Shown: positions 2,945-63,400 of the stretch, in pieces | Layout of the letters: the number at the start of each line of letters is the position of its first letter | Position numbering within the stretch: the stretch's first letter is position 1 | Assembly: GCA_050084515.1 (NCBI GenBank) | Contig: CM114271.1 | Location: 1,674,001 to 1,738,000, forward strand | Source: Blasia pusilla | Taxonomy: Eukaryota | Direction of reading: 5' to 3' | Length of the DNA stretch: 64,000 bases | Position numbers and translations under genes: made by a program | Notes under the pieces: model-generated | The model's database searches: none | The model's input: only the letters and a program-made list of their open reading frames with translations | Told to the model about the DNA's origin: nothing

Positions 2945-2974
2945 ATCATTTTCGGCCAATATCTCAATCTGTAC

Positions 2975-9000: not shown

Positions 9001-9112
9001 TGCCATTTCGGACAAGTTTCCCAACTATTTGAGTTTTGACTTTCTATTTGTGGAAAATGGTATTTGAACCACTATTGTAGGTTTAGGGTTAAGTATAGGA
9101 CATGCGTGCGCA

Positions 9113-23640: not shown

Positions 23641-24279
23641 ACCAAGTGGATATACTCAGTATATCCAAATAAACATTTTGTCACTATAGGCATTCATATA
23701 CTTGTGAAATAACAAGAATTTACACTCATCAAAATAGCCTCAAGTGCAGACAAACTATAGTACTTCTTCCAAAAAACTTCTAACTTATTGGGAAATGGTG
23801 ATTGGTTTTATCTTGTCTTTCAAATTTTTTTTTTGAAATTCTTAAGTTCTCATAGAGAGTATTATGAAAGTGATCGGATGCATGATACTTTTGTCATGAA
23901 ATCAATCACTCTGTCGTTATTTAGGGTAAAGTGGCCAGTTGCATGATCACAATGAGTCATGCAAAAAATCACTTTTGCTCGCAACATGCACCATAACAAT
24001 TGAATGTAATAGGTTGCATGACAATAGGCTTGTATTGTAAACAAATAATTTCCTTCTAACACTACTCTTGAAAGTGATCAATCGTATGACCACACACTAG
24101 ACCAAACAGATCATACGACCGATCTCTTTCAAGATTAGAGTAAGATGAAAAGTGATTGATTACAAGATAATCATGTGGTCTTGCGACAAAAAACTTTCAG
24201 TCATACAAATCACAACCAAAAGTGATTGGTCGTATGAATTCACAATGGTAATGCACACTCGATGCTATGGCAATCATCT

Positions 24280-26469
24280 CTTGGCGTACCTGCAAAACAT
24301 CCCAAGAAGTCCAAGGTTATCTCTTCCGATCACCCGTGGTGTGTCGATCTCCTCGGGTCTTGCCCCTTGCCGCTGCCTCAACCGTCTTGGTAGGCATGGG
24401 CTCACTAACGCAATAGCTACGATATGTTGCATCCTCAAATGGGGCTGCTTAGCTACTCCTAAGCTGAAAATCCATGTCAAGCAATTCTGGTCCATCGTCT
24501 GACCCAAGACATCACGTCGTGATGCCTCTCATACTGACGGTACTGCCGTCACTCTTGTGGAGAATCCCATCGCTCTTTCTCATCAGCGTTGGGCTACACC
24601 AACCTCTGTACATGGTCAACCCAAACCAAGCCAGGTCCTCCCAAACCAAGCTAGGTCCGACCTCCTTGAATGCATAGGAAGCGGAAAAACTCACCAATGT
24701 GGGAAAGGCTGCCTGTGGCTTCCCAATCTTGTTGACCACAGTCAACGGCGATCGATCATCTAGCCTCACTGCCTGTGATTGACGGCCCGGATCCAATATA
24801 GAATCCACCAACAAATTGGAGGGATGCTCCACTCTCGCATATACCCTCCGTAATACCTCGTGTGGTACCAAGTTGCTCCACCAAAGACACGGGCAATGTG
24901 CTTGTGAACCTACACTCACCGTATCTAACAACACTGTCGGGTCGATCCATGCGCGCACCTGATGTGCACTCGTCACCACGCGGGACCTCAAATCGCCCAA
25001 AATTGGCACATTCTCCAAAATGTATGCTGGGGCCAGTAGCATTTAGGCCAAGTGATGGCACTGCTAAATGCTACTAAGGTCGCCATCTCTCATGGCCGTC
25101 GTTCAATCATTGCACCTGCGAATCAAACGCGTAACGAGCTAAGGCGCCCATCACCTGACTGCCATCCTAGTCTGTAGGACGCTGACTCCTCCCAGTAATC
25201 TAGGGAAAACCCCATCGGGTATAATACTGCTCCACCAACCAAGACGTCGTAGGACTCTGCATCAATCAATATCGCATTGGCTCGCACCACAGACTCATAT
25301 GTAGGATGTCCTTGGCGAATCCTTACCACAACCTCCAATCGGGTGATATATTGTGTGGTACTCGCTCCACCCAAGGATGTCTATACGTGGAATGGACAAC
25401 GCTCCACATCGGCTCTCGTCAAGCCCAATCTTCTAAATGACGCTTTTCCCAACATCAGGGGTTGCGCTCTTGAATCCAACAAGACGCGATGCGGACTAAA
25501 AGCTCTACCTCCGGGACTCACCAAATGGAAGACCTCTCCCCGGTTATCCAGCAATACAACACCAGGAGAAACCATGGCACGCTCTATCGCGGGTCTAGTG
25601 GGCATCTCCGCCATCCTAGCAGCCGCAGCCTGCCATGAATCTGACGTGGACGGCCGGAGCATCCGCTCCAAGGGCAGGTCCATCACCTCCTCTCCAATCA
25701 CCTCTAAACGTGATGCAGGAACTCCAACTCCACGCTCACATAGCGTAGTGGCCAGCCGAAAAATCTCGAAGGGCATACCTCCCAACGTCATAACATCAGA
25801 AGCAGAAAATAAAGTATTTTGGGTAAGTTTTATGTTGGGGATAGTTGAATTTCCACTTTGGGAAGTGGTCCTTGACCCGCTACAGTAGGTCGAGCGCGGT
25901 ACACAACGATGGCCGCCCCCAACAACATGCTCGACACATGCCCCTTTTGAGCATCAACAATAGGAGTCGTCGCACTTGCTTCTCCCATCGCCCTCCGTGC
26001 CTCCACACCGACAACATCACCAACTCTCCAAGAACTCTGATTAGGACCCATCAATGGGGTCCTCATCGCCTCGGACAACGTGAAAAACTGAGGAAGCCTA
26101 GTTTGTTTCCTAGCTTCCCCTCAGCTGTGGATCCAACTCTACGGCGAATCCCACGTCACAATGGCGGCGGCCTCCATCTAGGCAACCCCACACATCCAAC
26201 CAAGATCCTCCATATCTCTGGTTGCTCCATATGATGTCGATGCCACGGATCCGACATCGGGTAATCTCAATGCCATAGCGGCAATCTGCTCATGTAGCTG
26301 ATGTATTTGAGCAGCCATCCTAGCCTCAAGTCCGACGTCTCCCTTCAAGCGTCTAGGTGGTGAGACTCTACCTCCTCCACGGGAAGCTCCACCACCGTGT
26401 CAGGCAACTTCAGCTCCTCGTCCCCCAATGGGACCACCTAGTGCACGATCTCTAGGCCCACCCGGACGG
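24280..26469 (-). mobile_element. Gypsy family A, copy 1, internal fragment: gag tail, linker, aspartic protease and C5-DNA methyltransferase (partial)
   Basis: 25678-26469 aligns by eye with 52011-52730 of the Gypsy-PHD copy. It is followed by protease RVLLDSRAQPLMLG (LLDSGA-type)...YDVLVGG and then DNMT motifs. Confidence 0.85.
24465..25042 (-). pseudogene. C-terminal half (motifs VI-X) of a cytosine-5 DNA methyltransferase, DNMT3-like, embedded in Gypsy pol
   Basis: AYILENV (motif VI, ENV at 25015-25007). PTVLLDTVSVGSQAHCPCLWWSNL (motif VIII; compare DNMT3 [22 protein letters not shown]; the two Cys codons TGC/TGT are single C>T changes from Arg). After a frameshift, PNADEKE/AMGFSTRVT...SRRDVLGQTMDQNCLTWIF (motifs IX-X). 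Motifs I-IV are absent (internal deletion at about 25045). Confidence 0.85.
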
Positions 26470-27360
26470 GGGCTGGTATTCTGGCAAGAGAGAGAAAGAG
26501 AGGAGAGGAAGAGAGGAAGAGAGGAGAGTCTCTCTTAAAAAAAAAAAAAGGGCAGAATCCGCTCTCCTCTCTTCAAAATTTTTTGACATATTTGAAATTT
26601 TTGTTTGCTTTAAAATACAAGAAATCTTTAGAAGAGAGTAGCAAGTGGACCACATTCGGGCCTAAAGTAACCTCCTTTTTCCAGGGGAGAAAAAAATAGA
26701 CATCATAAGACTACTACAAACATTCTTCCATCACTCTCCATGTGAGCTTAAGTTTCTTCACATTGTCTGTCTCACTCTACAGTAAGCTGTGCCCATGGAT
26801 ATTTTTAACTACTCTAACTATGGTCTCAATAGACTGCGGTGTCCTTCAAGGTTTAACTTCTCGGAATATGTGGTTGACATTATGGATTGACATCTCTTCT
26901 TGCAAAAGGCATAAAATACTCCTCAATAAGGGGCAAAAGAAAGGCAAAAGGAAATGCCTTTAAATGATTGTTGACTCTTCTAGCAAAAGGCATCAATACT
27001 CATCCATAAGGGGGTTTTCCACAACAGAACAAATCGCTCGTCACTCATGGTAGCCTTAGACTTTCATTACATCATTTGATGATGTGGGCTCTTGAATGGG
27101 TGCACAAAGTATACCATGGACTGCTGTGCATTTGACAACTTGGTTTCACCATTCTCTCTGCCACTGAGAAATGTGAACACACGAGACGACAATTGAACCA
27201 AAAGATTGATAGCTGTCTGGAGTAAAGAGGAACTGATAAAAAAGAAAACGTGATCAGACGAGACGACAATTGAAGCAAAAGATATTTAGTTATTAGGAGT
27301 AAAGAGGAACTGACGCACCCATGTCCTTCATTCAGATCCTAAATCTGAGAATCTGAGAAG

Positions 27361-27780
27361 CTGCACCCCTCCCAACCCGTCGGAATTCGACAAGTTGCAA
27401 CTCTTGCAATCCGTCGGAATCGAATGGGTTGCACCCCTTGCAAGCAAGCTCACCATAACAAAAGAAGGATTTTTAGAAGTGATTCCATTCCGCCCTGCAC
27501 CCCATGAGAATGCAACAGGTTGGGAATCCTAAATGGCAATCCGACACGTAGTAGGAATCCAACACGTCTTAGAGAAGAGAAGAAGCCTACGACTGGTTTG
27601 ACGATAATATGGGAACGAGCCAAAAGTGAAGAAGCCCTCCAGAACGCCTCAAAACTTGGACTTACAAGGAAAGAGTCCGATCACTCAAGCAGCCAACCTG
27701 TCGGAATCTGAAAAGTTGCCTGAAAGTGGTTAAAATATTGTGAGAAGTTGCAACCCGTTGGAATCTCACGGGTTGCAAAA
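27361..27780. repeat. Left subterminal cluster of the palindromic motif TGCAACCCGTCGGAxTCCGACGGGTTGCA
   Basis: At least 5 degenerate copies, e.g. ttgcaacccgttggaatctcacgggttgcaa at about 27748-27778. Confidence 0.85.
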
Positions 27781-27883
27781 TAAACAGTCTGAGTAGATAG
27801 ACCAACACAATCGACAAGACCAAAAAAGATATTCAGCAAGCTTTTACAAACACCATCATAGATCAAAAAATTCTTGTCCTTTA

Positions 27884-32416: not shown

Positions 32417-32869
32417 GGATGCAAAATGAGGTTTTAGATTGTACTTTTTTTTTTCTCAACCTTCACTTTGAGCTTGAACTCTATTCAGCCCTGGGCAAAT
32501 GATAGATTTTTTCCAGACCTTGGATGGAAAAAGTGATTGGTTCCACACTTATGATTCCACTGATTTTTCAGTTTTCTAAATTTTGTGCAATTTGCAACTC
32601 GTCGGACTTAGAGGGGTTGCCAAAATATGGAAGAGGAAAAAAAAATTGTGGGACTGCTTAATATATGAACAAAAATGCTTAAAATAATTCAAACAAAAAT
32701 TTTCCTCTCTTCAACCCGACGGAAACTCTCTTAAAAAAATATATCTATTTCGGTTGAAGGTAGTTTCCTCTCTCCTCTCTTCCTCTCTTCCTCTCTCCTC
32801 TCTCCTCTCTTCCTCTCTTCCTCTCCTCTTACCGTTCCTCTCCCCTAAACCCATACATCATCGACGCGT

Positions 32870-34386
32870 TCCTAGCATCAACACGAAACCCAATATCCCA
32901 AATAACTTCCCAATACCCGAAAATCCCTCACATGTGCAGGGTAAGAGACCAGAATGGGTAATTTGACAATAATGTCGATGTCGCTCCTCAGCAACTACAA
33001 ATCTCAACCCCAACTCGGTCGTGGAGACAACTCCTCTAATCAGCAAGTTGTACTCCTCTTGTACTGACGATGCTCAAACCTCCTCGATGTGCGGTGCAGG
33101 TCCAACTGTCCGATGTGGCATTGGCGGCACGGAATGGCTACAAACGGCACGGCACTCGGGAATGGGATGCGGCATTCCTCGGCATATCCTCCTCAATCAG
33201 CAATTCACACGCTTTGCTCCTTAGTGAAGGACCGGCTCCCCGATCGAGATAGTGTGGTGCGGCCATGAGCGGCACGGCGTGGCAATCGGCGGCTCGTTGT
33301 GACTACAGGCATCACGGCACGCTACTCGATCGTCGTCGAGCGGTTACCAATCACACCATAGCAACATGAAATGAAAACTCAAACACCATAACGTGGGGTC
33401 ACGTGCCATCACTGGTTGAAGAAAAAACTGCAATGACAATGGCGGCCAAACCAAAGTACGTGGTGGCGGCGCAAGTCAGAGAATCAACAGTGGTCGTGGA
33501 AGACCCTCCACTCCGTAATGGCGGCAATGGCAACCAAAGGGTGGACAACGGACGAACGCGGCTCTAAGCAGCGCTAGGCGGGGGCAAGGACCGACGGTGG
33601 ACGGTGATGGTTGATCATTGACGGTTGACCGTTGATGGTGACTATGATGGCGATGGCGACGGCCGCCGTCGGCATGGCGGCTGGTTTAGGGTTTGAACAA
33701 TTTAACCCTAAAAATCACCTAGCAATGGCAGTTTTGCAAGATTCACCATAACTTTTTTTCTCGCAACTCCAAATTGCGCACCATTTGTTGCACAGCATGC
33801 ACAGCTTTACAATCTACGCTAGAGTTAAAAAATATTTTGAATCAAAAATTCCAGTAAAAACTGACAGAGACTGTTGTAAAGCCCAATGTCTCTTTCTCCT
33901 ACACAAAATTTGGCAACGCTTCTGCATCGATTTCTCCCAAAGAAAATGTAAAACCTGTGAAAATACAAATCAGAAAGCTACATCGTGCTCCTGAGAACAC
34001 CGGCATGGGGCAACCCACCCCATACTCAATCCCTATCAAAAATTGGATAACGCTTCCGCGCGCCACTCTTCCACACGAAAAATCGGCAAAAGAAACATTA
34101 CAAGTAAGCGGCTCCTGCTCCGGTGAGCACTCCCATGAACTGCTGAACAGGGGATATGATCCCCAACCTGCAAAACCAGCGAGTGACCTACGAGCTCCCC
34201 CATGAAGCTCTCTCACTCACTCATTCTCTCTTTGTAAAATAAGATGCAATCTCTCTCACAACACCATAGTTCTCACATGTGTGCACTTTCACATGTCTCT
34301 CTCAATGTCAAACCAAACCCACTCTCCTAATGAGAGGCTTGGGTTACACACACAAGGCAAGCAAGACCATAGCTCCGCCGCCTCAT
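32870..34386 (-). mobile_element. Gypsy family A, copy 1, 5' leader region
   Basis: 32870-33360 matches 54240-54730 and 33760-34386 matches 55310-55921. It ends at the same ccatagctccgccgcctca motif that abuts the LTR in copy 2. Confidence 0.85.
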
Positions 34387-34389
34387 ACA

Positions 34390-37300
34390 AATTCTCTTTG
34401 AAGGCTAGAATATCCTCTATGCGACCTCTTGAGATAACATTTGCCACACATGTGCATGATCCTCATCTATCTCAGTTGCCTCCATATCTTCTTCTTGACT
34501 AAATCTAGCTCTAGACAACATGTCAGCTACTGAGTTCTCTTTCCCAGTTATATGCTTGAATTGTGGATTCATGGACCTAATGTAGGCTATCCAACGTAGC
34601 ATGGCTATATCTGGAGTCCTACAATTCGCAATCATACCCAACAGAGGTAGACAATCAACCTCAAGAAATACATAAGCTCCCATAATACCCTTCTCAGCTT
34701 TCATTGCAGTTACAACTCCCCAAAGTTCTCTCTTTACTTGAGGGTACCTCCTCTCTCATTCTGTGAGTGTACGAGCTCCAAACCTTGTCGGAAATCTTCT
34801 TCCTTCCGTTTCATCCTGGCCAACTTCCCACCCAATAGCAATAGGGCTAGTGTCCACTGTGATGATAATAGGTCTTCCGCATTTATAACTCATTTGTCGT
34901 AGAACTAGTGGCGACTTCAATGCCTCCTTCAACTGCATCATTGCTGCTCCTTGCTTCTTCTCCCAAGTGAACTTTTTCTTCTTTCTCAACAGCTCATACA
35001 AAGGATCAAATATGTGGCCAAAATGAGGAATCCACACCGATAAAACACACAAGCTCCTAAAAACCTTCTCACTTCGGTGACGTTTTAGCATTCTCGTATC
35101 CTCCCGATGACATCAACTTTTGCAGGATTAGGTTTTCAGGCCAAACTCTCCACAAAGATGACCCACTACCACAATTTGAGGAACTCCAAAGCTACACTTT
35201 TCTCCATAAAGAGTAAGATTGACCTCTTCTAGTCTTGTTAGGATCATATCCACATCACGAATATGATCAGACACAAACTTTCTACATCTATCTTTCACAA
35301 CCCTCTCATTCCTATCTTCTATTGCACATCCCTTTATAGGAATATCATCTACAAAAGGAATGGTCTTCTCAGGAATGAATTCTCTCAAGATTTTATTCAT
35401 TGCACTCTACATGTGAGCGACAAAATTTGTTGCTCCTTGAGGTAATGTGCACATTCTTACAAGCCCAAGTGGAGTGCGCATAGTGATAATATCTCTACTC
35501 TCCATAGCTAGTTGGAATTTATCATATTATGAGTGCAAATCTTCTATCAAATAGATACCACGGGCTGCAAAAGCTTTTGCGACTTCATCTATTCTAGGCT
35601 TCGCTCCCATATTTTGAATGGTTACCTTATTTGCTGGTTGCATATCTTGAATGAATCGGAGAGCTCCTGATTTCTTCGGCACACTGAACCATCAAGTCGA
35701 GTAAGGCCCCATAGATGGCTCTAAGATACCCATCTTTATCTTCTCCTTCAATAACTCAATCAGCTTGGGAATCATAGCTCGTGGTACTAGTATAGGTTTC
35801 AAATCCCAAGGCACATATGGAACTGTGAAAATTACCATCGGTGCCACCACACTCGTGTCTACACAACCAATTTCTTGTGTAGTAAAAGAGAAGGACTTAC
35901 CATGTCTCTTGAACTTCTCCCGAAAGCTTTTCCTTTCAATTTTTGCGAGAAACTCACCCCCTCCAATTTGCAGACGATCTAGCGTCTCTTCTGTGAACTT
36001 GTGTCCGATCTTCCTGACATCCCGTAGACTTGGCTCCAGTGATGCACGTTCTACTTGTTTTCCACAACCCTCTGGTAGTTGAGTAGCCATTGGTTTCATC
36101 TTCCGGGCCATCGTCTTGTATTTCATGTGCACTCGTGCCTCCATGGGATGTTCTTCAACCTCAAACTTGTGCTCTTCCTCTTCCTTCTCCGTAATTCATA
36201 TCCATTTTCTCCTTCCATAAACCTTGATATTTCTTCATGCAACTCACGCGAGTGAATTGTAATCATACTTGTATCCAATGAATCGGTGCTCATCTAGGTG
36301 AACATCTCTTCAAGACTATCCCAAAACTCTCTTCTTCATACATCCCACTAATGAACTCTTCATCTAATAGAACATCCTTACATTTTAACAAACCCTTTTT
36401 TTTCCATAAAACATCTTTTCTTTTCATTCATTTCTTTCATCATTTGGAATGTACTAGACCACGAAGAAAAACATTGAGAAAACCCACACCTAAACATATA
36501 TGATTCTTCCCCTTTGCTTGCGGAAGACTCTTTCTTTTCTCTGCACCCCCATATTCCCGCTCTACAAAAGTGCTAACTAAAAATCCGAAAACTCCTTCTC
36601 TACCTTCATAGGATCATCTCTCAACTTCTCCCTATTCCTTTTATGATCTACTCGTACAGTAAGGAATTGAACTGATCTTGTTCCATCTTGACTTCTAATA
36701 CGGGCATAATGAGACCAATCATCCATGATTTTGGTCTCCATTCTAGATGCTGTGATGTAAGGTTGCCCAAGAATCGTAGAATAAGGAGCTCCATTCTAAA
36801 CAAAAAAATTTTGCTCAATCAACACATCTCCGATACGAGTTTTGACGGATGGACAAGCACCGTAGAGTTCACCATTTTGGTTGTTAGCCACTCGTGGTAC
36901 CCATCCATGCCTTGTATCAATTGTCCATATCCCTTTGTCATATACACTTCGCGACATGATGTTGATCTCCGAACCATTATCAACGAGAGCCAAAACTGAC
37001 TCTTGGAGAGAGCCAAGTCGAAATCTAGCCTCCGTCGTTGCACGTGCCCAATATGACCGAGAATAGTGTCCAACATTGTGCGTTTCTTCACCTTTTTCTA
37101 TCAAGGTTTTTCTTACTCTTGCCTCTTCTTCCCGTAAGTCAAGCTTTTGTCCAAAATCTTGGCAAAGCTCTTCATCTTCTTCTTCTGTGATGTCAGTATC
37201 CAAAACCCTCACCATCACCATATCTGCAGTCATCTGCCTCTTCCTTTTGATCACATCTATGATCAACTCATGAAAGTCACGTTTGGCTATGCCCAAAACT

Positions 37301-39076
37301 TCCCTTAGAGAAAACTCTATTTTTGCATCCAAAATCCTCTCCTCAAGAATCTCCTTCAAATTCGTGTTTGTCTCGATATCAGACTACACCTTGTATGTAA
37401 GAGTCCTACCCTTGGTCTTCTGAGGAGACCTCAATTCGTTCCCCTTCATCCCTGCTTCTTTGACTTGAGAATCCCTCATAGATTCAAATGTGGAAGGTCC
37501 TTCTTCTCTTGATGGTTGTGCCTCCGGTTGCCTTTTTCTTCTTATGGTCCTCGCTCTTCTTGCAGCTTCCTTACCATCAACACCATTATTATCGCGTCTC
37601 CTCTTCTTCTCCATTCTAGCATCTTGCCAACTCACATGGTTCTCTTGTGCTAGGTATGCTTTAACAGACCTAGCTTCCATTGGATCATCCCATCCAGTCA
37701 GATGACGGATAGTCTCTGCCCCTCGTACCATTGCTTCTCGAGGAAATTGTAATGATTCACTTTTAGCTACAGATACAATAGGCGCTTTTATTTTTACTGC
37801 AAAGGTATCAGAATCTAATGCCGTAGTGACAACTCCTACTTGAATTCTCACAAAGCCTTTCATTCTTCCTCTACCAAAGTTGATATTCAACGGCATACTA
37901 GTATGCGTTAAATGAATCTTCTCATCTTTAAAGTTTACTATTCCATTCCTAAGAGCTTCTGAAAACTCCTCACATTCTTGACGTTGATGCTCAACATTAT
38001 CATACCATATACATCTTCTGACAAAGTTTTTATTTTTCAAAGCAACACCAACACTATGATTCCTATCTAGTTTAAGCTCAGTCATTTCTACTCTCAATTC
38101 TCTTAAATCTTTCACCAACTCATCAATGACAGAATCTTCAAGTTTTGCTGACATGGGCTTAAGCAATGGATTTGAAATTGATACCTCCGACTTGAATAAT
38201 GCGGTTCTACCTCTACTTCGACTTTGCTTTGTGAGGATAACAACATCTTCTTCCACTTTCTTCCAACTAGTGCTGACACCTCCTTCTTCGGTCTTGTCCG
38301 CCAATATTATGAAAAGCTTATCCTCCAAATTCTCATCTGCCGTCTCAAGGAATAACTTTGTTTTCCTCAAGTCTAGAGTTGCCCTTTCAAAAGAAGAAAG
38401 CTGAAAAAACCGTTTCTCAAACTCACGCAACAATTTATTTGGAGTCATTGCCTTCCTTGGACATTGCTCTATCCATTCTAGAAAACTCCTCTTAGTCACC
38501 TGATCCGCATCATCATCGAAGAATTCTCCTTTCAACAACTGTTCATACTCCTCCCACAAGGTTGGATTTTCTATTCTCAACTTCTTTACTTGACTACGAA
38601 TCTTTGGTATTATAGCTAACTCAAAACTTGACACCATATCACCTTTGAATACACGGTTTATCTCCATCTCACAGTCGTACTTTCGAACATATTTGGTGAT
38701 GTTCCTCCCATCAAATCTCCCCAACTTTTTTACGATCGCTTGGAGAGCCTTTGTTGATCTTTGCTCTCCTATGTGAACTCCTCCTTATTAGCTCAACAAT
38801 GTTGTCAAAGTTTGGAGAAGATCTTCAGCTCCCTTAGTTCTCATTGATCAAATATTACCAAAAGTAGTCATCTTGATAAGACTTCAACTTGCAAAAACAG
38901 TCTACCACTTGAATGATCTCTCAGTAGAAGCACCATTTGTCGTGTCGAGAGTCTTTCTTCGAGTAAGGATGGATCTTCTAACTGCGACAGACGTGATCGA
39001 TGCAAAATGCACTCTCTAAAAAGTTTTTTTTTTTCAAAACAAAATTATTATGTATACTCTTCATTCTCTTACGACA
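34390..39076 (-). mobile_element. Gypsy family B degenerate element: LTR remnant, PBS-like site, gag, protease, RT, RNase H; integrase missing
   Basis: Gag GRFDGRNITKY (38724-37384), protease LALVDNGSEINIMS, RT GILEPSMGPYS...IPFVDDIPIK, RNase H IITVDTSPIAIGW...HITGKENSVADMLSR. TGTCGT...ACGACA LTR remnant at 38938-39076, followed on the minus strand by TGGTGCTTCTACTGAGAG. Confidence 0.9.
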
Positions 39077-47093: not shown

Positions 47094-47518
47094 TGTCGTG
47101 CGCATAAACATCGCTACAAAACATACATCATCGTCGACATACATACACACAAACACGCACGATCCGATGTTGACTCATGGCATCCAAACAATCAGACAAG
47201 AAATACCAAAATATCTCCCCCTCCCAAGCTCTCTCCTCGGTAATCTATGCTCGCACGTCACCTCCTTGGATCTTGACCTGTTGTAGTGGGTCAAGGGCCA
47301 CTTCCCAAAGTGGAAAGTAAACTCTACCAAACATGGAAACTTGCCCAAAATAGTAAGTTTCTCTATATGGCTCCAAATGAGCCGAAACGAAGGGAAAACC
47401 TGCTCTCTTAGGTTTCCCAAGACCTTAGCAGGTCATCCTCAACCTCTTGAGTTTGTCCTCCTCTACACGCAAAGGCGCTCTACCAGATCTCTCCGATCTA
47501 TCCTAAAAAGTCGTGATA
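47094..47518 (-). repeat. LTR of Gypsy family A
   Basis: 47220-47518 is highly similar to 55990-56267. Termini TGTCGT...GTGATA. Its left part is repeated in the adjacent LTR 47521-47730. Confidence 0.75.
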
Positions 47519-47899
47519 GCTGTCGTGCGCATACACATCGTTGTCGACAAACATACATACAAACACGCATGAATTAGCATACATACAAACATCGTGCGTG
47601 TTTGTATGTATGCTAACTCATGGCATCCAAACAATGAGACAAGAAGTACCAAAATATCTCCAATCATCCCCTAGTTGGTGGTTAGGTCCCTCTAACTCTA
47701 GATAGCCATCTATCCCTACCTACCATGACATACATCTCTCGGACGCTAAGAGCAAGAAGGTCAGGTGCTCATGTGGCCCCATCGTTAGTCGCCTTCTTGT
47801 CAACCACATCACAGACAAAAGTTAAAATCTAGAACTACCTACCTTATGTACATCTGGGACACATCCATTGTCCCTTGAGAACCCTAGTGAGAGGTGGCG

Positions 47900-49169
47900 T
47901 GTGATACCCACAATTTTGTACTTTTGAAGAAATACATCTTTTTATTCAACAAAGACTTGTATATACATTATGATTTTGATTATTATGGAGAAGAATGAGT
48001 AAGATTAAAGTGAATCACGAAGCTCCAAGGACAAGGCAGAGAGATAGAAAATCAAGGATTTGCCTAAGAGGAGAGGAGAATACAATAACAAAGTCTAAAG
48101 ACCCATCAAGAAGCTTCGAAAGGACAACGAAGCTTTGTTAAGAACTTGTCTATGAAGTGCTTCGCTCCTGAACGAAGCATGAAGAAGAAGAAGAAAAGAA
48201 ATAAGTACTTTGCTCTTGAACGAAGCTCGAAGAACGAAGCACCTGGAACAAGAACAAAGAATGAAGCGCTTTGTCTTCAGATCAGGAGAAAGAGCTTTGT
48301 TCTCAAGCAAAGCAAAAGAGGTCCAGACTTAACAGGAAGCGAAGCTAGGATTGACAGTGATTTCAAGCGACACGTAGTTAGAACAGTTAGAATAGGAAAA
48401 GGCAAAACTCTTTGTATCCGATAAGTAGTTAAGACAGTTTTGTTCTGCGTATTCATAGGGATCTTGGGAAAAGAGAAGAGCGCCATAGATCTAGGTAGTT
48501 ACAAATGTTGAAGAGATACCAGCTTCATCAAGAACGCTTCGAATCTTTGGATCACTCCTACTTCAGAGAGTATTTAAGAAACATACAAGTAGCTATCATC
48601 ATCAGTCTCTTACGAAGTCCTTATGCCATAGGAATGGTCCAAGCAAGGAGTAGTACCCTCTCGAGCTTGTATACACTTTTGAATCTTTCTCATTCTTGAT
48701 GGATTAGTAAAGCACTCATTCATTCATTCTGATGTGCGATGCTTATGTCTGAGTATTCTTTTTGGGCGTGTAGAGTGAAGAGTGAATCAGGCAAACCTTT
48801 CTCATCAAAGGAACAATCAACATAGAGTTGTAGGAAATCTCTTTGACAAAAAGTAGCCTGCCGAGACGGATTGAGTTCCGAAAGTAGGAAAAGCCAGCTT
48901 TCATGTTGAGGTCTCTGTGAGGGTTCTTGATATCGAGAGGAAATCTACCTGAGCGTGCTGTCAACTCCACTAGAGAGAATTCAGAAAAGAAACTTTGGTA
49001 CTAAGAAAGATCCGAAGATATTGATAAGACATTGAATTTAAATCATACACACTTAAATACAACTATTACAACAGAATTCTAATTTCGAACTCTCTTTTCA
49101 TCGAACAATGATCCTCTTGGGGATCGAACTCAGTAAACAACTGTAAAATTGAAACTCTTATACATTACA
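47900..49169. mobile_element. Solo LTR (1270 bp) inserted in the PHD finger of Gypsy copy 2
   Basis: TGTGAT...ATTACA termini with a perfect 5-bp TSD TGGCG at 47895-47899 and 49170-49174. Removal restores the PHD reading frame. Confidence 0.93.
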
Positions 49170-52100
49170 TGGCGTCAGACATGTCATATGCCATCCTCTC
49201 AAACACCCATCATAGACTAGCAGAGTGGTTGCACCACGGGCAAAACCACACAACATACATTGCAAGCCTGTAGGAACTACTGTTAAGCTCGTATCAAGTG
49301 TACCATCAATATTCGGAAGATGACATGGCGCACAGTTACGCACATGGTCCTTCCAAACCATACCATCGCATCCCTCCAATAAGAGAACACCGGATGGAAA
49401 AATCTCACGCACTCTCAAGATGGTGCGCCCTACAGTCACATCCAACGTCGTGGGTGCTGTCTGTTGCAAGTAGATATAGTCTCGTTGATGAAACCTCTGG
49501 ATAGTAGGTCGATAACCACCACCATCCTCCCAAATAGTCGCATACCTCAATGTATCCCGATGTTGTGCAATCGCCAAGTTCTCAAACGCCATGGGCATCA
49601 CTCTCTAAAACAACTCAGCCCTCTGAAAACATGCTCGCATCCATACATCAGGTTCATCAAGGTTCAACACCTCACGAACATCTCGACAAATGGCCCCAGG
49701 TAAATCTCGCTCTCGGCCATACAAAAGCAAATACAGTGAGAAAGACGCTAAGGATGCATGCCTGCTGAATCTGAATCCCATCGCCAACCAAAGCATCTGG
49801 AGGTCCCATTCTCCTAGGTGACCTCTCTGCAAGCCATACTTGCGTAATCCTCTCTTCATCGTCTGCGCAACCTGCTCGCTAGTCCATCCGCCTCAGGATG
49901 GTCTCGCGAAGTAGTGTGGTGGTTGATCAGTGCCTTATCATACAATGCCTAAAACTCCACGCGAAACTCTATACCCTCATCTGTCAACACCTCAACTTGT
50001 GCATCGTAATGACTCAGCACTCGATCTAGAAAGGCATACGCTACTCTCTCATTCACTTTGTGAGGCAATGCAACCAACTCTATCCACTTTGAGAAGTGCT
50101 CTATCATCACCAACACATAATGACTATGGTGCTCTGTCAAAGGCAAAGGTCCTGCAAAATCCAAACTCCATCTGTAACAAAACCTTTGATTGGAAGTGGA
50201 TGCAACTGTGGAGTTAGAGCATTGAATGATGCCCGGACTCGATCACACACCATGCATCTGGCAACAAACTGCTGAACGTCAATCTGCATGCCTTGCCACC
50301 AATACTAAATCTCAAGCAAGTTGTACGTCCGCTTCACTCCAAAATGACCCAACTCCTCGTGGGCATGATACACCAAACATGCTCTCTGCAAAGGATGAGG
50401 CACTACAAGCACTCTACCATCCTCCCAAACTCGCAACACATGTGTCCCCTCCCATCGGAACCGTTTGCTCTCTGTAGGATCTGATCCCGCTCTCTAGCAC
50501 CCACCGTGCTCGCGACGCTTCCAGTACGCAAGTACTCCAAGACCTTTCCATCATCGTGAATGTCTCTGCCACTTTTCGTCTCCTCACCGACCTCTGGATC
50601 TAAGGACTCTCCATCAGACCTCGCAATCGAAGTCTCAACAACTTGGCTCTCCATAGCCAACAAGCCCAAATAGGCTGACGCATGCCATCCTGGCACCAAC
50701 TCTTCATCACTCTCGCCATGCCAATGATCTCAAGTCGCATCTTGTTCACTTGGGCATAGGTTACGGCTCAAACCATCTGCATCCTCGTTGAACGTCCTAG
50801 GTCTATGCACCACCTAGAAGTCATACTCCTGCAACAAAAGAGCCACCTCGCAAGCTTCCCTGTAAGCTTTTCGGACTCCATCAACCACTTAAGTGGTTGA
50901 TAATGAGGAATGATGGTAAAGGGGTTACCGAATAAATAACATGTGAAATGTGCGGCAGCCAATCACTCACCCTCATACGAGCTATACTTCGCCTCTACAG
51001 CGTTGTTCGAGCACCTAGCGTAAGCCACCATGAACTCTCTACCATCATCGTCATGCTAGGTGAGCACGGCCAAGCCCAATCGGTATGCAAGTGGAAAGGA
51101 CGCCCCTTGATCGGTCTCCTCAATATGGGCACGGACGTCAATCTGCCCTTGAGCATCTAAAATGTTCTCTCCTACTCATCCCCCCAATGCCATTCCTGAC
51201 CCACCTTGGTCAGCAAGATTAGCGGCTTCGCAATCAAACTAAAACCCTTGACGTACCGTCGATAGAAGTTTGCCAATCCCATGAATGCACAAACTTGACT
51301 CACATTTGAAGGGCATGGAATGCGTGAAATAGCCTCTACCTTTGTCTGTTGCACACCAAGCCCCCCTAGGTATATCGTATGACCCAAGTACTCAATCTGG
51401 TAGTAGAAGAACTTGCACTTTCCTGGATGTAGCTTCAGCCCATGTAACTTCAATTGTCAAAACACCTCCTCTAGATGTCGCTCATGCTCCACAAAAGTGG
51501 CCCTAAAGACTACGATGTCATATATATAACACCTAGGAAAATCCAAACCTGCCAAGATCCTATCCATGACCCTCTGAAACTCAGCCAGGGCGTTCTTTAA
51601 CCCAAATGGTAAGAACCGTCACTAGTACAAATAATCCTTCCCTTGAGGATTGATGCCCTAAAATTCCGTCTTCTACCTGTCCTCCAATCTGATAGACAAC
51701 TGATGGTATCCGACTTGAAAATCCAATGAACTGAAGACCTTAATTTGCATGCCCAATCGCATCAAAGATCTCCTCAAGGATGGGCATACCTATCAGACTT
51801 TGTCTGCCGTTTGATAGGTTGGTAATCTCCACACATCCGCCTATCCGTATAGTTGCCATGCACATCCTTCTTGGTGGGTATGAAAGTGACAGATGCATAC
51901 TCTCCATGCAACATCTCCACTAGTCCTGCTCCAACCAAGTCTAGGCTCCTACTCTAAATGAGAGCCCTCTCCATATCATTGTACTTGTAGGGTCGTCGGA
52001 AGATGGGCGTGTCGATCACCTCCTCTGTAATCACCTCTAAATGTGATGCAAGAACTCCAACTCCACGCTCACATAGCGTAGTGGCTAGCCGAAAAACCTC

Positions 52101-55100
52101 GGCGGGCGTACCTCCCAACGTCATAACATCGGAAGCAGAAAATAAATGAGCGTGGTACACAACAGTGGCCGCCCCCAACAACGTGCTGGACACATGCTCC
52201 TCCTGACCATCATCAATAGGAGTTATCACACTCGCTTCTCCCATCGCCCTTTGTGCCTGCACACCAACAACAACATCACCCACTCTTCGAGAACTCTGAT
52301 CAGGACCCATCGATGGGGTCCTCATCGCCTCGCACAACGTGAAGGACTGAGGAAGCCTCGTCTGTTTCCTGGCTTCCCCTCGATGTGGATCCAACTCTAT
52401 GGCTGCTCCATGCATAACAACTACGGCGGCCTCCATTTGGGCAACCCTGCACATCCAACCAGGATCCTCCATATCTCTAGAGGCTCCATAAGACGTCGAT
52501 GCCACGGATCCGGTATCGGATAATCTCAATGTCATAGCGGCAATCTGTTGTTATAGCTGATGTATCTGAGCAGCCATCCCAGCCTCACGCCGGGCGTCTC
52601 CCTCGACATATCTAGATGGTGGGACTCTACCTCCTCCATGGGAAACTCCACCATCCCCTCCGGCGAATCCAACCCCTCGTCCCCCAACGGAACCACCTGG
52701 TGTACGACCTCTAGGCCCACCCAGACCGGCAACTCGCTTTGGTGCCCTCTCTTGCCCTCAATCCGAATGTAACTCAGGGTGCAAGTTGAAACACCTAACA
52801 CGTGTGTGACCTTACCTCTGAAAATGGTCACATTGATAACATCCTGGTGCAGCACCATCTCCTCCTCCATGCTAAGGCACGCGACCATGACCTTGACGAG
52901 TGCAATCGTGCTGATGATGGGCTGCACCATATGACCAACAAGTAATCATAGGCAGCTGCTGTTGAGCCACATATGAAGGCGTAGGTCTCTGTGGCATGGC
53001 CTCCCTATATCCTCCCTGAGCTTGTGGTGCCATAGATCTATCTTGGAATCCATATTGTTGCACTGGTGGTGCAGGCAATCGTGACTGCTCTTGCCTAGAA
53101 CCCATGGTGGCTACGGTCTCCTCTGCCATGTTGCGCTCAATTTTCTCGTCGGTCCTAAAAACATCTCTCAACGTAGGGGAGGTGTTCATAAGAAGAACCC
53201 CCTCTCGCATACGTGTCCGCAGGGTGTGGTCCAACATCGCATACCATGACTGGATAGCCTGAACCTCTGTCACCCCCTGAGTGACGTTAATCAACCGGCA
53301 CAAGCAGGTGTAGGCCTCACGCAAACTCTCATATGGGCGCCTCTGGAAGTCGTGGATGCTCCACAAATTCTCCATTCGTACCCCCTGTTAGCTCGCCCTC
53401 AACTCAACGAAGAACTCAACCACGGGGTTAAAGTTGAGACGAACTCGACTAGACGATGCAACTGCTCCAATGCAAGTCATCCCTCCTACAACATCACTGA
53501 TGGAGGAACCCTCTCCTCACTCCTCCTCCTCATCTGGAAACGGCTCAGTCCATGACACATAGTGTGGGTCATAGTAGAGTCTTCAGGCCTCAATCTCATG
53601 GGCATATCTTTGCGAGAACTCATGGTAATTGTCCATGGGTGCCCCCTCTAAATGCTGGAATATTCCGTTCCATATTGTAAACAGGTTGAACTCTCTACAA
53701 TTCCTAGCCTGCAGTGAGTCACACCAACTCCTAAACTCCGCAATGAAGTCGTGTAACTCTATAGTGCCTATAGCACCGAGAAACCTACGCGGTCCTCTAC
53801 CCGGTCGTCCATCTCGTACGCCCAACTGGTAGGACCACTCAATGTATGGGGTGGATCACTAGCACACTCCTCTACACTCTTCCCCTCATCTAAAGATGAC
53901 ACAGAACGAGATCGAGGTGGTCTCTCACGTGGAGACCCTCGAAACCTCGCACCACTCCGGATAAACCCTCTAGAGCTACTCTCAGGTCCACCAGCTCGCC
54001 TCTCAAAGTCCCGAAAGGACGCCGTGATGATCCTCGTGCTCCTCTCACATGATCTCTCTCAATCTTGGAAGTAATCACTCAATCCAACATGCCGCACTCA
54101 ATCTACACTCTCTCACTGAGACATGTGTTGTGCGGCAACAAGCGGCGTGGTGCGGAAAATCGTCTACTGTCCTATCATCTCATTGACAAGACACACCCAC
54201 AACTCTAGACATCCCACACATGTCTATGTCCCCTAACCCAGCATCAACACGAAACCCAATATTCCAAATAACTTCCCAAACCCAAAAATCCATAACACGT
54301 GCAGGGAAAAAGACCAGAATGGATAACCAGACAACAAGTGTCGATGTCGCGCCTCAGCAACTAAAAAACCTCATCCCCAACTCCGTCGTGAATACAACTC
54401 CTCCAAGCAACAAGTCGTACTCCTCTAGTACTGACGATGCTCAAATCTCCTCGATAGCGGTGTAGGTCCAACGGTACGGTACGTCACTCACGGCACGGAA
54501 CAAAATGGCTATAAAGAGCACCGCACTCGGTAATAAGGTGCGGCACTCAGCGGCATACCATCCTCAACAGTAATACACTCTCTACTCTACAATGATGGTG
54601 CGGCTCAACGATCAAGACGGTGCGGTGCGGCCACAAGCAGCACGGCGCGGCAATCGACGGCGCGTTGCGGCTACGGGCGTCACGGCATGGTACTCGATCA
54701 TCCTCGAGCGGCTACAAATCACGGCATAACAAAGCGGCGGGATTCGCGGCGATCGAGAGATTCAGACGTCGGCTCTACAGAAGCCTCGGACGGAGCGGCG
54801 ACGCGCACATCCTTAGTATCTTGTCGGCACTAGGAGGTCCGACCATCGGGTGGCGGCCCTGAAGTGTCGACGGACTACACAGCATACAACGGCGATAGCA
54901 AGTGCACAGCCACTTTGCGTCTCTGGGATAGTCGGCTAGGACACGGTGGGACAGACGTTGTCCCCCGCCATAAAAAAATTTCATTTTTTTATTTTTTTAA
55001 CTAGAATAACCCCTGGGAAAATTGGATCTCCACTATCTTTCCTTACTTGACATCCCCCCTCCTGACAAGTCTGCAAATTGAATGCCTTACCACAAATCCC

Positions 55101-55921
55101 TCCTAAGATTGAGGGTCAACACCCCCAAAAATGGGATCTACTCACCCTACCTCCAAATAGTTGAATTCAATTGTCCTATCCACCAAGTAAACTGAATTTT
55201 TTTTCTACCTCTCAAGAAAGAATTTCTACCCAAAAATTTCAAAATTTCACTCACACCTTGGAATGGTGGCTATGGCAGCCCAACAAAAATGATCATACCT
55301 CCATGCTCCAATCTCCAAATTGTGCACCATTTTCTTCAGCAGCGTACATCACTTCCCGATCTACGACCTTGTCAAATTGGTTCTCCATTTGATTTTCCAC
55401 TAAGAACTGACAGGGACTGTCCTGCAGCCCAACGTCTCTTTCTCCTACGCAAAATTCAGCAGCGCTTCCGCGCTGATTTCTCCCAACGAAAATGTAAAGT
55501 CTATGAAAATAAAAATCAGCAATCTACACGGAGCTCTTAGAGCACCGGCATGGGGCAACCCGCTCCCATACTCAATCCCTATCAAAAATTGGGCAGTGCT
55601 TCCGTGCGCCACTCTTCCACATGAAAAATCAGCAAAGGAAACATCAAAAGTAAGCAGCTCTTGCTCCGGTGAGCAGTCCCATGAACCGCTCAATGGGGAA
55701 TACGATCTCCAACCTGCAAAACCAGCGAGTGACCAACAAGCTCCCCCATGAAGCTCTCTCACTCACTAATTCTCTCTTTGTAAATCAAGTAGATCCAATC
55801 TCTCTCACCACCATAGCTCTCAAATGTGTGCACTCTCTCTCAATGTCAAACCAAACCCACTCTCCTAATGAAAGGCTTGGGTTACACTCACAAGGCAAGG
55901 GACCATAGCTCCGCCGCCTCA

Positions 55922-56267
55922 TGTCAAGAGGTTTAACAAAGAAACCTCTCAAGCTCTCAAGCTCTCTCACCTTGAGGTATACCCCCCTTCCCTATCCCAA
56001 GCTCTCTCCTCGATAACCTATGCTTGTAGGTCACCTCCTTGGCTCTTGACCTGCTGTAGCGGGTCAAGGGCCACTTCCTAAAGTGGAAAGGCAACTCTAC
56101 CAAATACATAAACTTACCCAAAATAGTAAGTTTCTCTATATGGCTCCAAATGAGCTGAAACAAAGGGAAGACCTCAGCAGATCATCCTCGACCTCCTGAT
56201 CCTGTCCTCCTCTACTCACAAAGGTGCTCAACTAAATCTCTCCGATCTATCCTAAAAATTTATGACA
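55922..56267 (-). repeat. 5' LTR of Gypsy family A copy 2
   Basis: TGTCA...TGACA termini; homologous to 47220-47518. Confidence 0.8.
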
Positions 56268-60406: not shown

Positions 60407-63400
60407 TCAATGTGAGCTTCTCCCATGGCTTGCAGAACCAACATCTTCACACTCTTCATTGAGCGCGGCGGAAGAATTGCTGGCAGAGTTTGCGTACAAG
60501 GATCGATAGACGCGCTTGATTCGCATCGTCAATATCAAGTTCATGAGAAGGCCCAACACGCAAACACCTGCCATGATGAGAAAGGTGAGTCGATAGCAGT
60601 GCGCCCCTACACATTCAGACACCTCGGATTCGTTCATCAACCTGGCTAGAATGTGACTTTCGACATCGTAATTGGCGTGTTTCTTGGTCGCTTCTTTGTC
60701 GTACAGATAACCGGCAATCACCCCAGAGAACAATAGAGCGCCGATCGGGTTCCCGATCGCTAAGAAGTTGTAGATCGATCCGAAGTTGCGCAGTCCGAAA
60801 AGCTCCGAGGCAGTTGGGACCATGATGGCTGTGTGAATGCCCCAAGAGAGCCCAACAAGCATTGAAGCCACGTACAAAGTTCCTGGATAAGCTGAAGCTA
60901 GGAGTAGATGTGCCACTATCATAATAACCTGACCTACAAGGAACCATACTGTCCGAGGAAGAGCCGCTGACCTGCATCCACAAGTGATTCGAGTAAAGAC
61001 TAAATCCAGAAGATCACGCGAAAACAATTCTACATCTCACGCTCAAATTTGGATCCAGTTGTGCTCATCTGGCTGCACGATCCAAGGATGACTTCAATCC
61101 AGGTTGGGATCAGCGTGAATCTCACTACTCTCCGAGCTTTACAAAATCTAGGAAACGAATTGGGGAAGAGACAGAGAACGCAACTAAATACTTCGCTCTT
61201 TGGTATCACGACAACAGAAATGGAACCAGTAGATGAGTCCATAGTTAGATCCTCGGATGTGGTGTATTGGCAGAAACGATGGACAGTCGCCAACAGCGCA
61301 GGAATTTGAGCAGAACAAATATTTGATCGGAGAGGGATGGCTGTATCCTACAAACGGGCACATAAATTGAAAATGATGGCATGCATACCTGACATAGTGT
61401 TCGGATAATGAACCTGCTCCAAGACGGCCCAAAAAGTTCCACACGCTCACGAGAGAAACAAAGACGGTCACATCGGAGTAGCCTTGCGCGAGTCCGATTT
61501 GTCCCAAGTTGTTGGTGGCTGTGACTCCCGTGCCAACGCCGCAGAAAAAAGTGAAGAAGAGAAGCCAGAAGTCGGCCTTCACGAGCGCCTCGAAGAGAGT
61601 GAAATCCTCCCCGCGTCTCGGACCTTTCTTTCTTCGGACTGCTCCTTCTCCCACAAGCAACAAGGTTCCATCATCGACATCATCGTCCATTTCAGAATTA
61701 TTTTGGGCCATGCACAATATCGGCGCATTGTCATTCTTGTAGTGGTCCTTGGGACTCACAGGGCTCTGGGAATGAGGCAGCCCCGAGTTGGAAATCAGGC
61801 TGGAGTTCTGAGGGCTGCCCGAAGATTTTGCAAGAGCCTCAGATATCTTCGGCTGTTTCGACGCGGTGCGCTCACGGTCTTTGATTCCAGCGCGGGGACT
61901 CGGAGGTGCAACATTCCTCTCATCTGGCTTCAGCAGTGGTTCTTGGAGCTTTCCAGACTCGTCATTACCCGATGGTTTCAGAAGTCCTCGGTTGTGGCGC
62001 TTCCAGGATCGTTTATCGAACAGAAACTTCAATGGCACAAGGAGTGGAGCGGCAAGGAATATGACCATTACCAGGACAAAGCTCCGAGAGATCAGAGGAG
62101 TGACAGGAAAGATGATCCCAGCCAAGCTGGCAACGAACAGAAACAGAGCCAAGGCGACACACACTACGTGCAAGAAAACGAAACCACCGTGCTCTTTAGG
62201 GTCATGGTACTCAGGAACAGAGCTCGTGCCATCTGGGGTGACTACAGGCCGGATGAAATACATGACGCATAGGCACACAGCAGAAGGACCGAGGGCAAGA
62301 AACAGAAGCAAAGACTCGGGATCGCCTTGCAAGAGAGAGACATAGATAGTCGTGAAAACTGCACCGCTGAGGCCTATGAATCCCTTAATGATTCCCACCA
62401 CCGTCCCTCGACTCTTGGGGAAGTTGCGCATGGATGTCACGAGTACTGCAGTGTTGAACCACGTTGAAGTGTTGGCCGCCAGACACAGAAACACACAGAG
62501 CTGTTGCACGAAGAAAGTCAGTGAGATGAACACGATGATTGTTATCCTCTACCATGAAACTCATCTAAAGTACGGAAGGTCCTCAGCGAGCTGCATACAC
62601 TCGAAATCCACCTCGGTGAACTAATCAACGCTAAAAGCTGCCCTTCTACGGATCACCCACTCCATGTACACATCAGGCCCGACAAGCAGCGAGGCCCTTG
62701 TGGCCACTTGAAGCAATTGATGATATACTCAACTAGTGGGGAATCGCTCAAATCTGTGAAGGAATCGATACAGGCGTCCTCAGGAAGCGGGAGGGCTCAC
62801 GCATGCAACCTAGGCCCGTACTGGGGGTGTACCGTGCACATACGACACAGGAATGGAAAGGCTTCCAATTCAAGACAGGAGACCACTCCATATCATTGAA
62901 CAACGACTCATATCCCCACGCATAAGGCAGGTCTGATGATTCTTCAAAAGAACTCACTGCAGAAGACACTTCTAAGTTCGGATGCATCACATATTCGCAA
63001 GGACTGAACAGACGTTTTCTGAAGTATCTGCGCAACACGATCATATACCTACGCCGACATCTAAGTGGCCATATCTATCAAAAGACACATAAAGATAGGA
63101 CCTTGGACACAAACCAAAAATCAGGAAGACAATTCTTCACAAAGAAACGGACCTGCCTATCCTCAACCCAGACCCCAAAAATACGTAGCTCATCACAGTT
63201 TTGGAGTGGGCAGTACCAGCCAGTATGGTAATGGAGCAATGCGCTGGGTCAAAACGAGCCACATCGTTCCATAGCCGATGAAACCACTCATAACACCGAT
63301 TGTCAAAATGCCCCACGGAGGTAGAATATTGCAGAGGATTCCAGGGAGCATCCCGACATTATCTCCAAAATCCTTCGCAACTCCCAAATTGTTGAGTTGT

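Follow-up and report, generated by a model that had tools for sequence, protein, structure and literature searches.

Can a single plant retrotransposon carry both a DNA methyltransferase (DNMT), which would write DNA methylation, and a PHD finger, which would read histone tails, and if so, are the two made as one protein? The question is raised by a stretch of 64,000 nucleotides from Blasia pusilla (GenBank assembly GCA_050084515.1, contig CM114271.1, positions 1,674,001 to 1,738,000, forward strand), hereafter the window, in which self-BLASTN and six-frame reading identify two minus-strand copies of one Ty3/Gypsy family. An earlier account drawn from the letters of this DNA (the sequence-only reading) reconstructed an ancestral polyprotein from these damaged copies, in the order gag, protease (PR), DNMT, reverse transcriptase (RT), ribonuclease H (RH), integrase (INT) and PHD. 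No reconstruction is needed, because DNMT and PHD are carried in one element, in that order, by 57 of 78 other genomic stretches. The interpretation preferred here, to which we assign a probability of roughly 60%, is a Ty3/Gypsy element of about 10.3 kb belonging to the Gypsy-DNMT3 lineage. Open reading frame (ORF) 1 would encode gag, protease and a DNMT3-like domain; a leaky TAG would follow; ORF2 would encode RT, RNase H, integrase and PHD.

Two samples define the family. They comprise the 39 best other hits to the protease-DNMT region of copy 1 and the 39 best to the integrase-end/PHD region of copy 2, with 10 kb fetched around each hit; the DNMT probe was the second half of that domain, and both samples are biased to query-like copies. 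The protease-selected stretches hold both domains in order in 28 of 39 cases, DNMT only in eight, PHD only in one and neither in two. Both are present in 29 of the 39 PHD-selected stretches (L073 being counted through a neighbouring diverged copy with its own DNMT and PHD), and PHD only in the other ten. Genomic copies with both domains, a search for which the sequence-only reading had suggested, do exist, and the two window copies belong to one family rather than to distinct subfamilies sharing only gag and untranslated regions. Stretches missing a domain are truncations, insertions or deletions with varied breakpoints. A DNMT-less subfamily was considered for L044, L075 and L085, which pass from protease into pol and lack the DNMT half used as probe, but their breakpoints differ and the idea was rejected. 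In L066 a single open frame of 786 amino acids contains RT, RNase H, integrase and PHD (Pfam; PHD PF00628 at 35.3 bits, cut-off 24), and PF00145 is found by Pfam in five further frames. The 390-Mb genome contains 1,283 exact matches to a 19-mer of the DNMT-RT linker (none for the control), which sets the family at 1,283 copies at least. The PR-RT-RH-INT order and a DDE integrase are those of Ty3/Gypsy elements. Paired copies of the repeat termed A below differ by a median Kimura two-parameter distance of 0.039 in 20 copies (three alignments partial). The family is real and abundant, decayed but recent.

An in-frame stop between two open reading frames

The proposed gag-to-PHD polyprotein is not supported, because a conserved in-frame stop separates DNMT from RT. 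This one stop lies between DNMT motif X and RT, at the same place in nearly all copies, and its flanks are in one frame. Of 61 copies, 57 have TAG there, one has TAA and three have a sense codon, never CAG; relatives keep the stop. Among 605 positions, the runner-up in stop frequency is at 23%, and none of 24 CAG codons exceeds 17.5% stops. Genome-wide, the linker 19-mer is found 1,283 times in its TAG form versus seven times with CAG. Decay of a glutamine codon by CHG deamination is rejected by these counts (CAG in 0 of 61; 1,283 versus seven).

The stop is followed by the hexamer CAA CCA in the window genome and in L111, and by CAG CCA in the diverged L073. Relatives show the same CARYYA pattern as CAG TTA (L132, L133) or CAA TCA (L157); the encoded dipeptides vary across groups while the nucleotide pattern persists. 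A metagenome set of 43 loci with both anchors reduces to 33 after merging at 98%. Among these non-redundant loci, 27 have a stop followed by CARYY, two have no stop and four have other contexts. Six groups form at 80% identity: three have the full CARYYA (background 0.22%), one reads TAG TAG CCA and one is degraded. L132 has 1,369 open codons, a single TAG and 1,047 further open codons, with its first methionine at codon 117, within RT. CAR YYA is essential for readthrough in tobacco mosaic virus (TMV; PMC2754532; here and below, statements about cited work apply to the parts of each source that were available). UAG with CAR-YYA and an in-frame downstream ORF is the TMV-type (type I) readthrough site, imperfect in the largest group of relatives. 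No shared RNA structure was found after the stop in 13 copies (z-scores +0.3 to -3.0).

Judged by this context, it is very probable that ribosomes would mostly terminate at the TAG and sometimes read through, with occasional readthrough yielding RT, integrase and PHD. As the stop separates gag-PR-DNMT from RT-RH-INT-PHD, protease and DNMT would probably be made in Gag amounts and the PHD-bearing integrase at the readthrough level of a few per cent.

Transcripts of the family are present in three RNA runs of one study on an organism designated A. L066 receives 6,589-7,132 of 10.1-12.0 million records per run, with reads in all 30 of its bins and a ratio of about 10:1 for the strand that is sense RNA under the usual stranded protocol. 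Most reads are 85-95% alike to L066, and so derive from other copies. In eight reads the leader is connected to the integrase core by a skip (L066:2439-9202) with splice-type ends on the sense strand, which reflects either infrequent splicing to an integrase-C/PHD transcript or a copy with a deletion.

Several observations weigh against a leaky stop in a working element. Both ORFs are open in none of the 78 window-genome stretches examined. The largest metagenome group (36 of 43 loci) mostly has CAA CCC, without the final A; the stop is TAA in 8 of 33 loci, and stop plus CARYY is absent in 6 of 33. The stop is missing altogether from some Gag-side relatives (P0067). Organism A is not shown to be the species of the window genome, and a further organism, D, holds more of the searched words. 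An in-frame methionine also follows early, at +15 in window-genome copies. Two other routes to ORF2 have to be weighed with these points in mind. A single continuous polyprotein, with DNMT and PHD equal in amount and acting together at the integration site, would suit the dominant domain spacings of 525 and 558 nt, which leave all domains in one frame, as well as P0067 and the distant algal-type relatives whose single ORF spans RT-RH-DNMT-INT-PHD (27 among the top 150 representatives). It is nonetheless highly improbable and largely refuted for this family, the stop being its normal state, kept in relatives, and not decay. Expression of ORF2 by an internal promoter, re-initiation or splicing is improbable, if less so. 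Early methionines (that at +15, and others at +3 in L073 and L124 and +5 in L133) and the imperfect CAA CCC context would accommodate such a route, for which Tca2, with an in-frame stop and a junction promoter, sets a precedent (PMC2194720). It is opposed by the lack of a usable methionine in L111 (first at +48), L132 and L157 (+117), by the conservation of frame and CARYY hexamer across groups, and by the absence of a leader-to-RT joint among the 15 of 29 joints listed. Readthrough remains the favoured route.

The methyltransferase and the PHD finger

The best solved relatives of the DNMT by sequence are DNMT3A, DNMT3B and DNMT3C (E 6e-11). Its predicted fold (pLDDT 91.5) matches DNMT3A in Foldseek with E 1.4e-19 and TM 0.71, and the motif order is unrearranged. 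The catalytic Cys is present in 61 of 62 copies and the ENV Glu in 60 of 61, and the catalytic residues are invariant or nearly so across 30 aligned relatives. dN/dS is 0.165 against L073; four other comparisons give pN 0.23-0.35 with saturated pS, and the linker before the stop gives dN/dS of 0.47-0.50. By these substitution measures the DNMT is under purifying selection. It is a predicted DNMT3-type methyltransferase: its conservation is established, and we infer its catalysis and substrate.

Traces of self-methylation were sought in the decay of the copies. C-to-T changes between paired repeats affect 14.7% of CG and 18.9% of CHG sites versus 4.4% of CHH sites, which is what host enzymes alone would give. 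The observed/expected CpG ratio of the family is 0.76, against 0.58 and 0.44 in other elements of the window. As it is not lower than theirs, CpG depletion gives no footprint of self-methylation, and the CpG comparison within the window counts against the writer role. So does the report that a Gypsy DNMT of Klebsormidium nitens produced no methylation in yeast, a result its authors call inconclusive; related DNMT3s of Symbiodinium DIRS elements methylate CG de novo (PMC5890265).

The PHD closes ORF2, in frame with the integrase, and its closest solved fingers are those of CHD4, PHF12, KDM5 PHD1, KAT6A, BHC80 and AIRE. Among 161 homologous integrase-PHD proteins, 153 have a complete finger for comparison. 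Two positions ahead of the His, at what we take to be the place of the H3K4me3 cage tryptophan, the residue is Gly in 142 fingers, Ala in nine, Pro in two and Trp in none, so that the cage tryptophan of the H3K4me3-reading ING/BPTF type is absent. That tryptophan is invariant in H3K4me3-reading PHDs, and readers of unmethylated H3K4 use acidic residues before the first Cys (PMC3241642). Compared with the BHC80/AIRE/KDM5 type, this family shares the missing cage and has its nearest solved fingers there, but it lacks the acidic residues; one is present in 109 of 153 relatives, and their absence here speaks against a reader of that type. dN/dS of the PHD is 0.15-0.36 on 43-48 codons. The finger resembles readers of unmethylated H3K4, and our best guess is that it would bind the H3 N-terminus and disfavour K4me3. 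No chromodomain, the reader of chromoviruses, is among the nine Pfam families of the 786-residue ORF. The first 100 listed family matches on contig C1 are spread over 25 Mb, unclustered.

In the preferred interpretation, writer and reader would not be one fused protein; they would differ in amount and in the step at which each acts. The chances are about even that the DNMT would be packaged in the particle, freed by the protease and would methylate cytosines of the new cDNA, so that the copy arrives marked. Marginally better placed is the proposal that the PHD, in the place of a chromodomain, would tether integrase to H3 N-termini without K4 trimethylation, away from active promoters. The DNMT might instead have been retained to methylate host or rival DNA in the nucleus, or as a non-catalytic nucleic-acid-binding domain of the particle. 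Such roles would leave no excess CpG loss and only the CG/CHG decay of host enzymes, they agree with the inactive K. nitens domain, and Gag-level amounts would fit a structural or trans function; we consider them unlikely given the near-invariant catalytic residues in 30 relatives, the completeness of the predicted fold and the activity of the Symbiodinium enzymes. It is likewise doubtful, though a little less so, that the PHD does no steering, binding H3 with little mark preference or making protein contacts, with any insertion bias due to selection. The missing acidic patch, the unclustered matches on C1 and the motif-free target duplications accord with this, while purifying selection and the integrase C-terminal place kept from chlorophytes to bryophytes tell against it, as does Chlamydomonas Gypsy-7a, which carries a PHD and inserts intergenically 2.6 times above chance (PMC9940879). 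Tethering by the PHD stays the favoured role.

Split repeats and the two copies in the window

Twenty copies were traced to both ends. Each consists of a repeat A (about 514 bp), the internal region, a repeat B (127 bp), a 2-nt spacer, and then A and B again, about 10.3 kb in total. The termini are TG..CA and the target duplication is short, as in Ty3/Gypsy elements: at 4 bp it is exact in 11 of 19 copies and within one mismatch in 18 of 19, and at 5 or 6 bp it is found in 0 of 19. The repeats are split (A…B-A-B) in place of two identical long terminal repeats (LTRs) with a tRNA primer site, and after the 5' repeat there is a purine-rich tract and no TGG, as seen without a search of a tRNA set. 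Instead of the tyrosine recombinase of DIRS and PAT elements there are a DDE integrase and 4-bp duplications. The internal junction is composed of the right end, two bases and the left end; from this layout, a single CA-NN-TG junction may template both ends used by integrase. The repeats of one element resemble each other more than those of different elements (A, distances of 0.035 versus 0.072; B, 0.039 versus 0.055) in 15 copies, after exclusion of 4 of 19 rows with large indels and of one without two detectable A starts. The relatives L147 and L152 have the complete A…B-A-B layout, and five further relatives have the junction. GACA-NN-TGTC junctions are seen in L162:5080, L110, L127, L132, L147, L152 and L169. 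One of these has DNMT inside Pol, so split repeats may date back to the origin of the clade.

The window copies themselves (table 1) are remnants. Self-BLASTN recovers the matches between them that were noted earlier, pairing copy 1 with copy 2 at 25672-25813/52005-52146 (91%), 25892-26470/52148-52729 (83%), 32871-33364/54237-54732 (80%) and 33767-34386/55313-55922 (82%). The gag-to-RT jump of copy 2 is confirmed and placed at 52005-52008, and copy 1 proceeds at 25672 into protease instead; measured against an undeleted genomic copy, copy 2 has lost about 2.36 kb. The two deletions do exist, and each junction is spanned by the window's own copy only among the 40 best-scored hits per search; both are private accidents. 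Amplified deletion derivatives resembling either copy were looked for in the same hits, and none was found. Contrary to what had been supposed, the deletions are not complementary: copy 1, which ends at 24254, retains only the second DNMT half (motifs VI-X), about 675 bp with motifs I-IV being gone, and both copies combined still leave the element incomplete. A solo LTR of 1,270 bp (TG..CA, 5-bp duplication) does split the PHD of copy 2, as had been seen, yet removing it gives a finger with seven of eight zinc ligands, not a complete one; ligand three is Tyr, and across 68 aligned stretches this position is Cys in 47 and Tyr in 21. The suggested Pfam check succeeds on the PHD of L066 (PF00628, as above) and not on the window's cut pieces, of which the 148-residue PHD half, the gag-RT junction and the DNMT half score no family. 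Position 47521, earlier regarded as the end of copy 2, is the internal repeat junction, and the copy spans 47094-56267. In other copies, Retrotrans_gag is weak in L049 (Pfam, E 0.039), and Asp_protease_2 is weak in L059 (E 0.067) and clear in the relatives P0029, P0030 and P0059.

Table 1. Positions, within the window, of the parts of the two element copies.
Feature	Position	Strand	Evidence or remark
Copy 2, whole element	47094..56267	-	both termini TG..CA; 4-bp target duplication with one mismatch (3/4)
Copy 2, 5' repeat A	55783..56267	-	BLASTN to L066/L070
Copy 2, gag region	52009..53711	-	tblastn; broken by stops and frameshifts
Copy 2, deletion junction	52005..52008	-	protease, DNMT, in-frame stop and RT N-terminus removed
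Copy 2, reverse transcriptase remainder	51364..52007	-	tblastn; frameshifted
Copy 2, RNase H	50843..51186	-	tblastn
Copy 2, integrase (zinc finger, core, C-terminal part)	49266..50388	-	tblastn; Pfam on L066 ORF
Copy 2, PHD, first part	49170..49265	-	in frame with integrase
Unrelated solo LTR inserted in PHD	47900..49169	.	similar sequence within L033, L057, L107
Copy 2, PHD, last part, and ORF2 end	47847..47899	-	
Copy 2, internal repeat B	47521..47663	-	followed by 2-nt spacer 47519-47520
Copy 2, second repeat A	47221..47518	-	reduced to about 300 bp
Copy 2, terminal repeat B	47094..47220	-	127 bp
Copy 1, repeat A and 5' leader (remnant)	32841..34386	-	
Copy 1, gag 3' part	25672..26470	-	inverted repeat A piece of about 80 bp at 25815-25892
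Copy 1, aspartic protease region	25051..25671	-	tblastn
Copy 1, DNMT3-like second half (motifs VI-X)	24466..25033	-	
Copy 1, post-DNMT linker	24254..24465	-	break about 90 nt short of the conserved-stop position

Other features surround these copies. Copy 1 is interrupted by an insert (26471-32840) that holds, at 28263-28700 on the minus strand, an ORF resembling bacterial-type N4/N6 DNA methylases, also seen in L198-L204. Its PF01555 scores (E 9e-5 to 1.5e-3) are below the cut-off; in the ESM Atlas the top hit reaches 0.95, and ten of the ten best hits are of that family. It appears divided into exons and sits in a different high-copy repeat, since all 150 scored of 3,139 candidates match at 83-88% identity. 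An unrelated Gypsy-like element adjoins copy 1 at about 34600-38784 (minus strand; RT 23% identical). The window further contains short or diverged pieces of the family repeats at 2359-2517 and 8962-9361, a Copia remnant at 2747-4866 (plus strand) and a plant-type Nodulin-like/NFD4 MFS host gene at 60410-62548 (minus strand).

Relatives, known systems and implications

Named DNMT relatives at 50-69% identity occur in Marchantia polymorpha, Calypogeia fissa, Riccia sorocarpa and at least four Sphagnum species, and more distant ones in Closterium, Klebsormidium nitens and Mesostigma. The 123 hits listed include no vascular plant, hornwort or Physcomitrium name, which is weak evidence from a word-index search. 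Marchantia Mp_7g09570 unites DNMT, integrase and PHD pieces in one gene model. One protein holds DNMT, integrase and PHD, with DNMT inside Pol, in 42 of the 150 top-ranked among 3,425 representatives, and proteins from Volvox and Tetrabaena show this arrangement as well. In quick trees, all protease-DNMT (Gag-side) forms make up one clade (SH-aLRT 98), as do their integrases (99). These trees have midpoint roots and no host-DNMT3 outgroup, and P0220 and P0035 are absent from that of the integrases; with midpoint roots only, the direction in which the DNMT was relocated is not established. Many Marchantia and Sphagnum models annotated as 'hypothetical protein' (P0005-P0014, P0017, P0031-P0035, P0205) are ORFs or spliced-together pieces of this family. 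In the algal-type P0036 and P0038, a domain after the PHD shows motifs like those of adenine methylases (DAM) by eye, and Pfam places no family there; if real, it would make these DNMT3+PHD+DAM elements.

Chromoviruses carry a chromodomain at the integrase C-terminus, the very place of the PHD in this family; their LTRs are canonical. The closest described system is KnitGypsy-Dnmt3 of the charophyte alga K. nitens, which shares an unrearranged Dnmt3-type domain with conserved catalytic residues, purifying selection and DIRS-like repeats on a Gypsy body (PMC5890265). It differs in that its DNMT lies 'in the Pol polyprotein ORF'; the present DNMT ends ORF1, Gag-side of a conserved stop, in a family with very high copy number and bryophyte relatives. 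K. nitens proteins group with the present family in both trees, KFL_013780020 (protease-DNMT) in the DNMT clade (SH-aLRT 98) and integrase-PHD proteins in that of the integrases (99), although none of them is shown to be the published element. The main text of that paper contains no occurrence of PHD, no land-plant members and no readthrough stop; a PHD may appear in its figure 4c. EpiLTRs of Cymbomonas and Euglena (bioRxiv 10.64898/2026.05.21.726589) likewise join writer and reader in one LTR element, but they combine DAM, a DNMT4-sister DNMT and a chromodomain and are stated to be distinct from streptophyte Gypsy-DNMT3. Here a DNMT3-type domain is paired with a PHD, at which ORF2 ends. In Chlamydomonas, Gypsy-7a_cRei and REM1 have a PHD proposed to guide insertion, with no DNMT mentioned in the available text (PMC9940879). 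TMV, SIRE1, murine leukaemia virus and Tca2 have an in-frame stop between ORFs, and the TMV-type CAR-YYA hexamer is shared (PMC2754532, PMC2194720); in those systems the stop comes directly after gag or pol, and here after protease and DNMT.

One source states that land plants, tracheophytes for instance, lack transposon methylases (PMC6338049). No bryophyte Gypsy-DNMT3, DNMT3+PHD pairing or such stop was found in the available parts of a literature outside subscription journals, Repbase, GyDB and REXdb, which included PMC12344493, PMC6673714, PMC6453930, PMC11982613, PMC7466625, PMC2194720, 10.1101/363937 and 10.1101/2021.11.30.470311. Writer-plus-reader retroelements and Gypsy-DNMT3 are known already. 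New are the land-plant range, the pairing of DNMT3 with PHD, the Gag-side DNMT at a readthrough-type stop, and split repeats with DDE-type integration.

Taken jointly, these features may point to a green-lineage clade, older than land plants, with a DNMT3 writer and a PHD reading H3 unmethylated at K4. The DNMT would have moved Gag-side in streptophytes, a bryophyte-type leaky stop would give capsid-level DNMT that methylates cDNA before integration, and split repeats would template both ends without a tRNA primer; as a whole this is tentative. If it is true, many of the DNMT gene models listed as 'hypothetical' for Marchantia and Sphagnum are transposon ORFs. The family also affects DNMT counts in bryophyte annotations. 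That clean 4-bp duplications and a DDE integrase go together with split repeats implies a way of replicating for which the literature found gives no explanation; besides the chromodomain, the PHD offers a further candidate for targeting. The conserved, probably leaky stop predicts the amount and place of the enzyme, at particle level alongside Gag, and relatives in Marchantia polymorpha, a tractable plant with methylation mutants, make it testable in a land plant why retrotransposons capture DNA methyltransferases.

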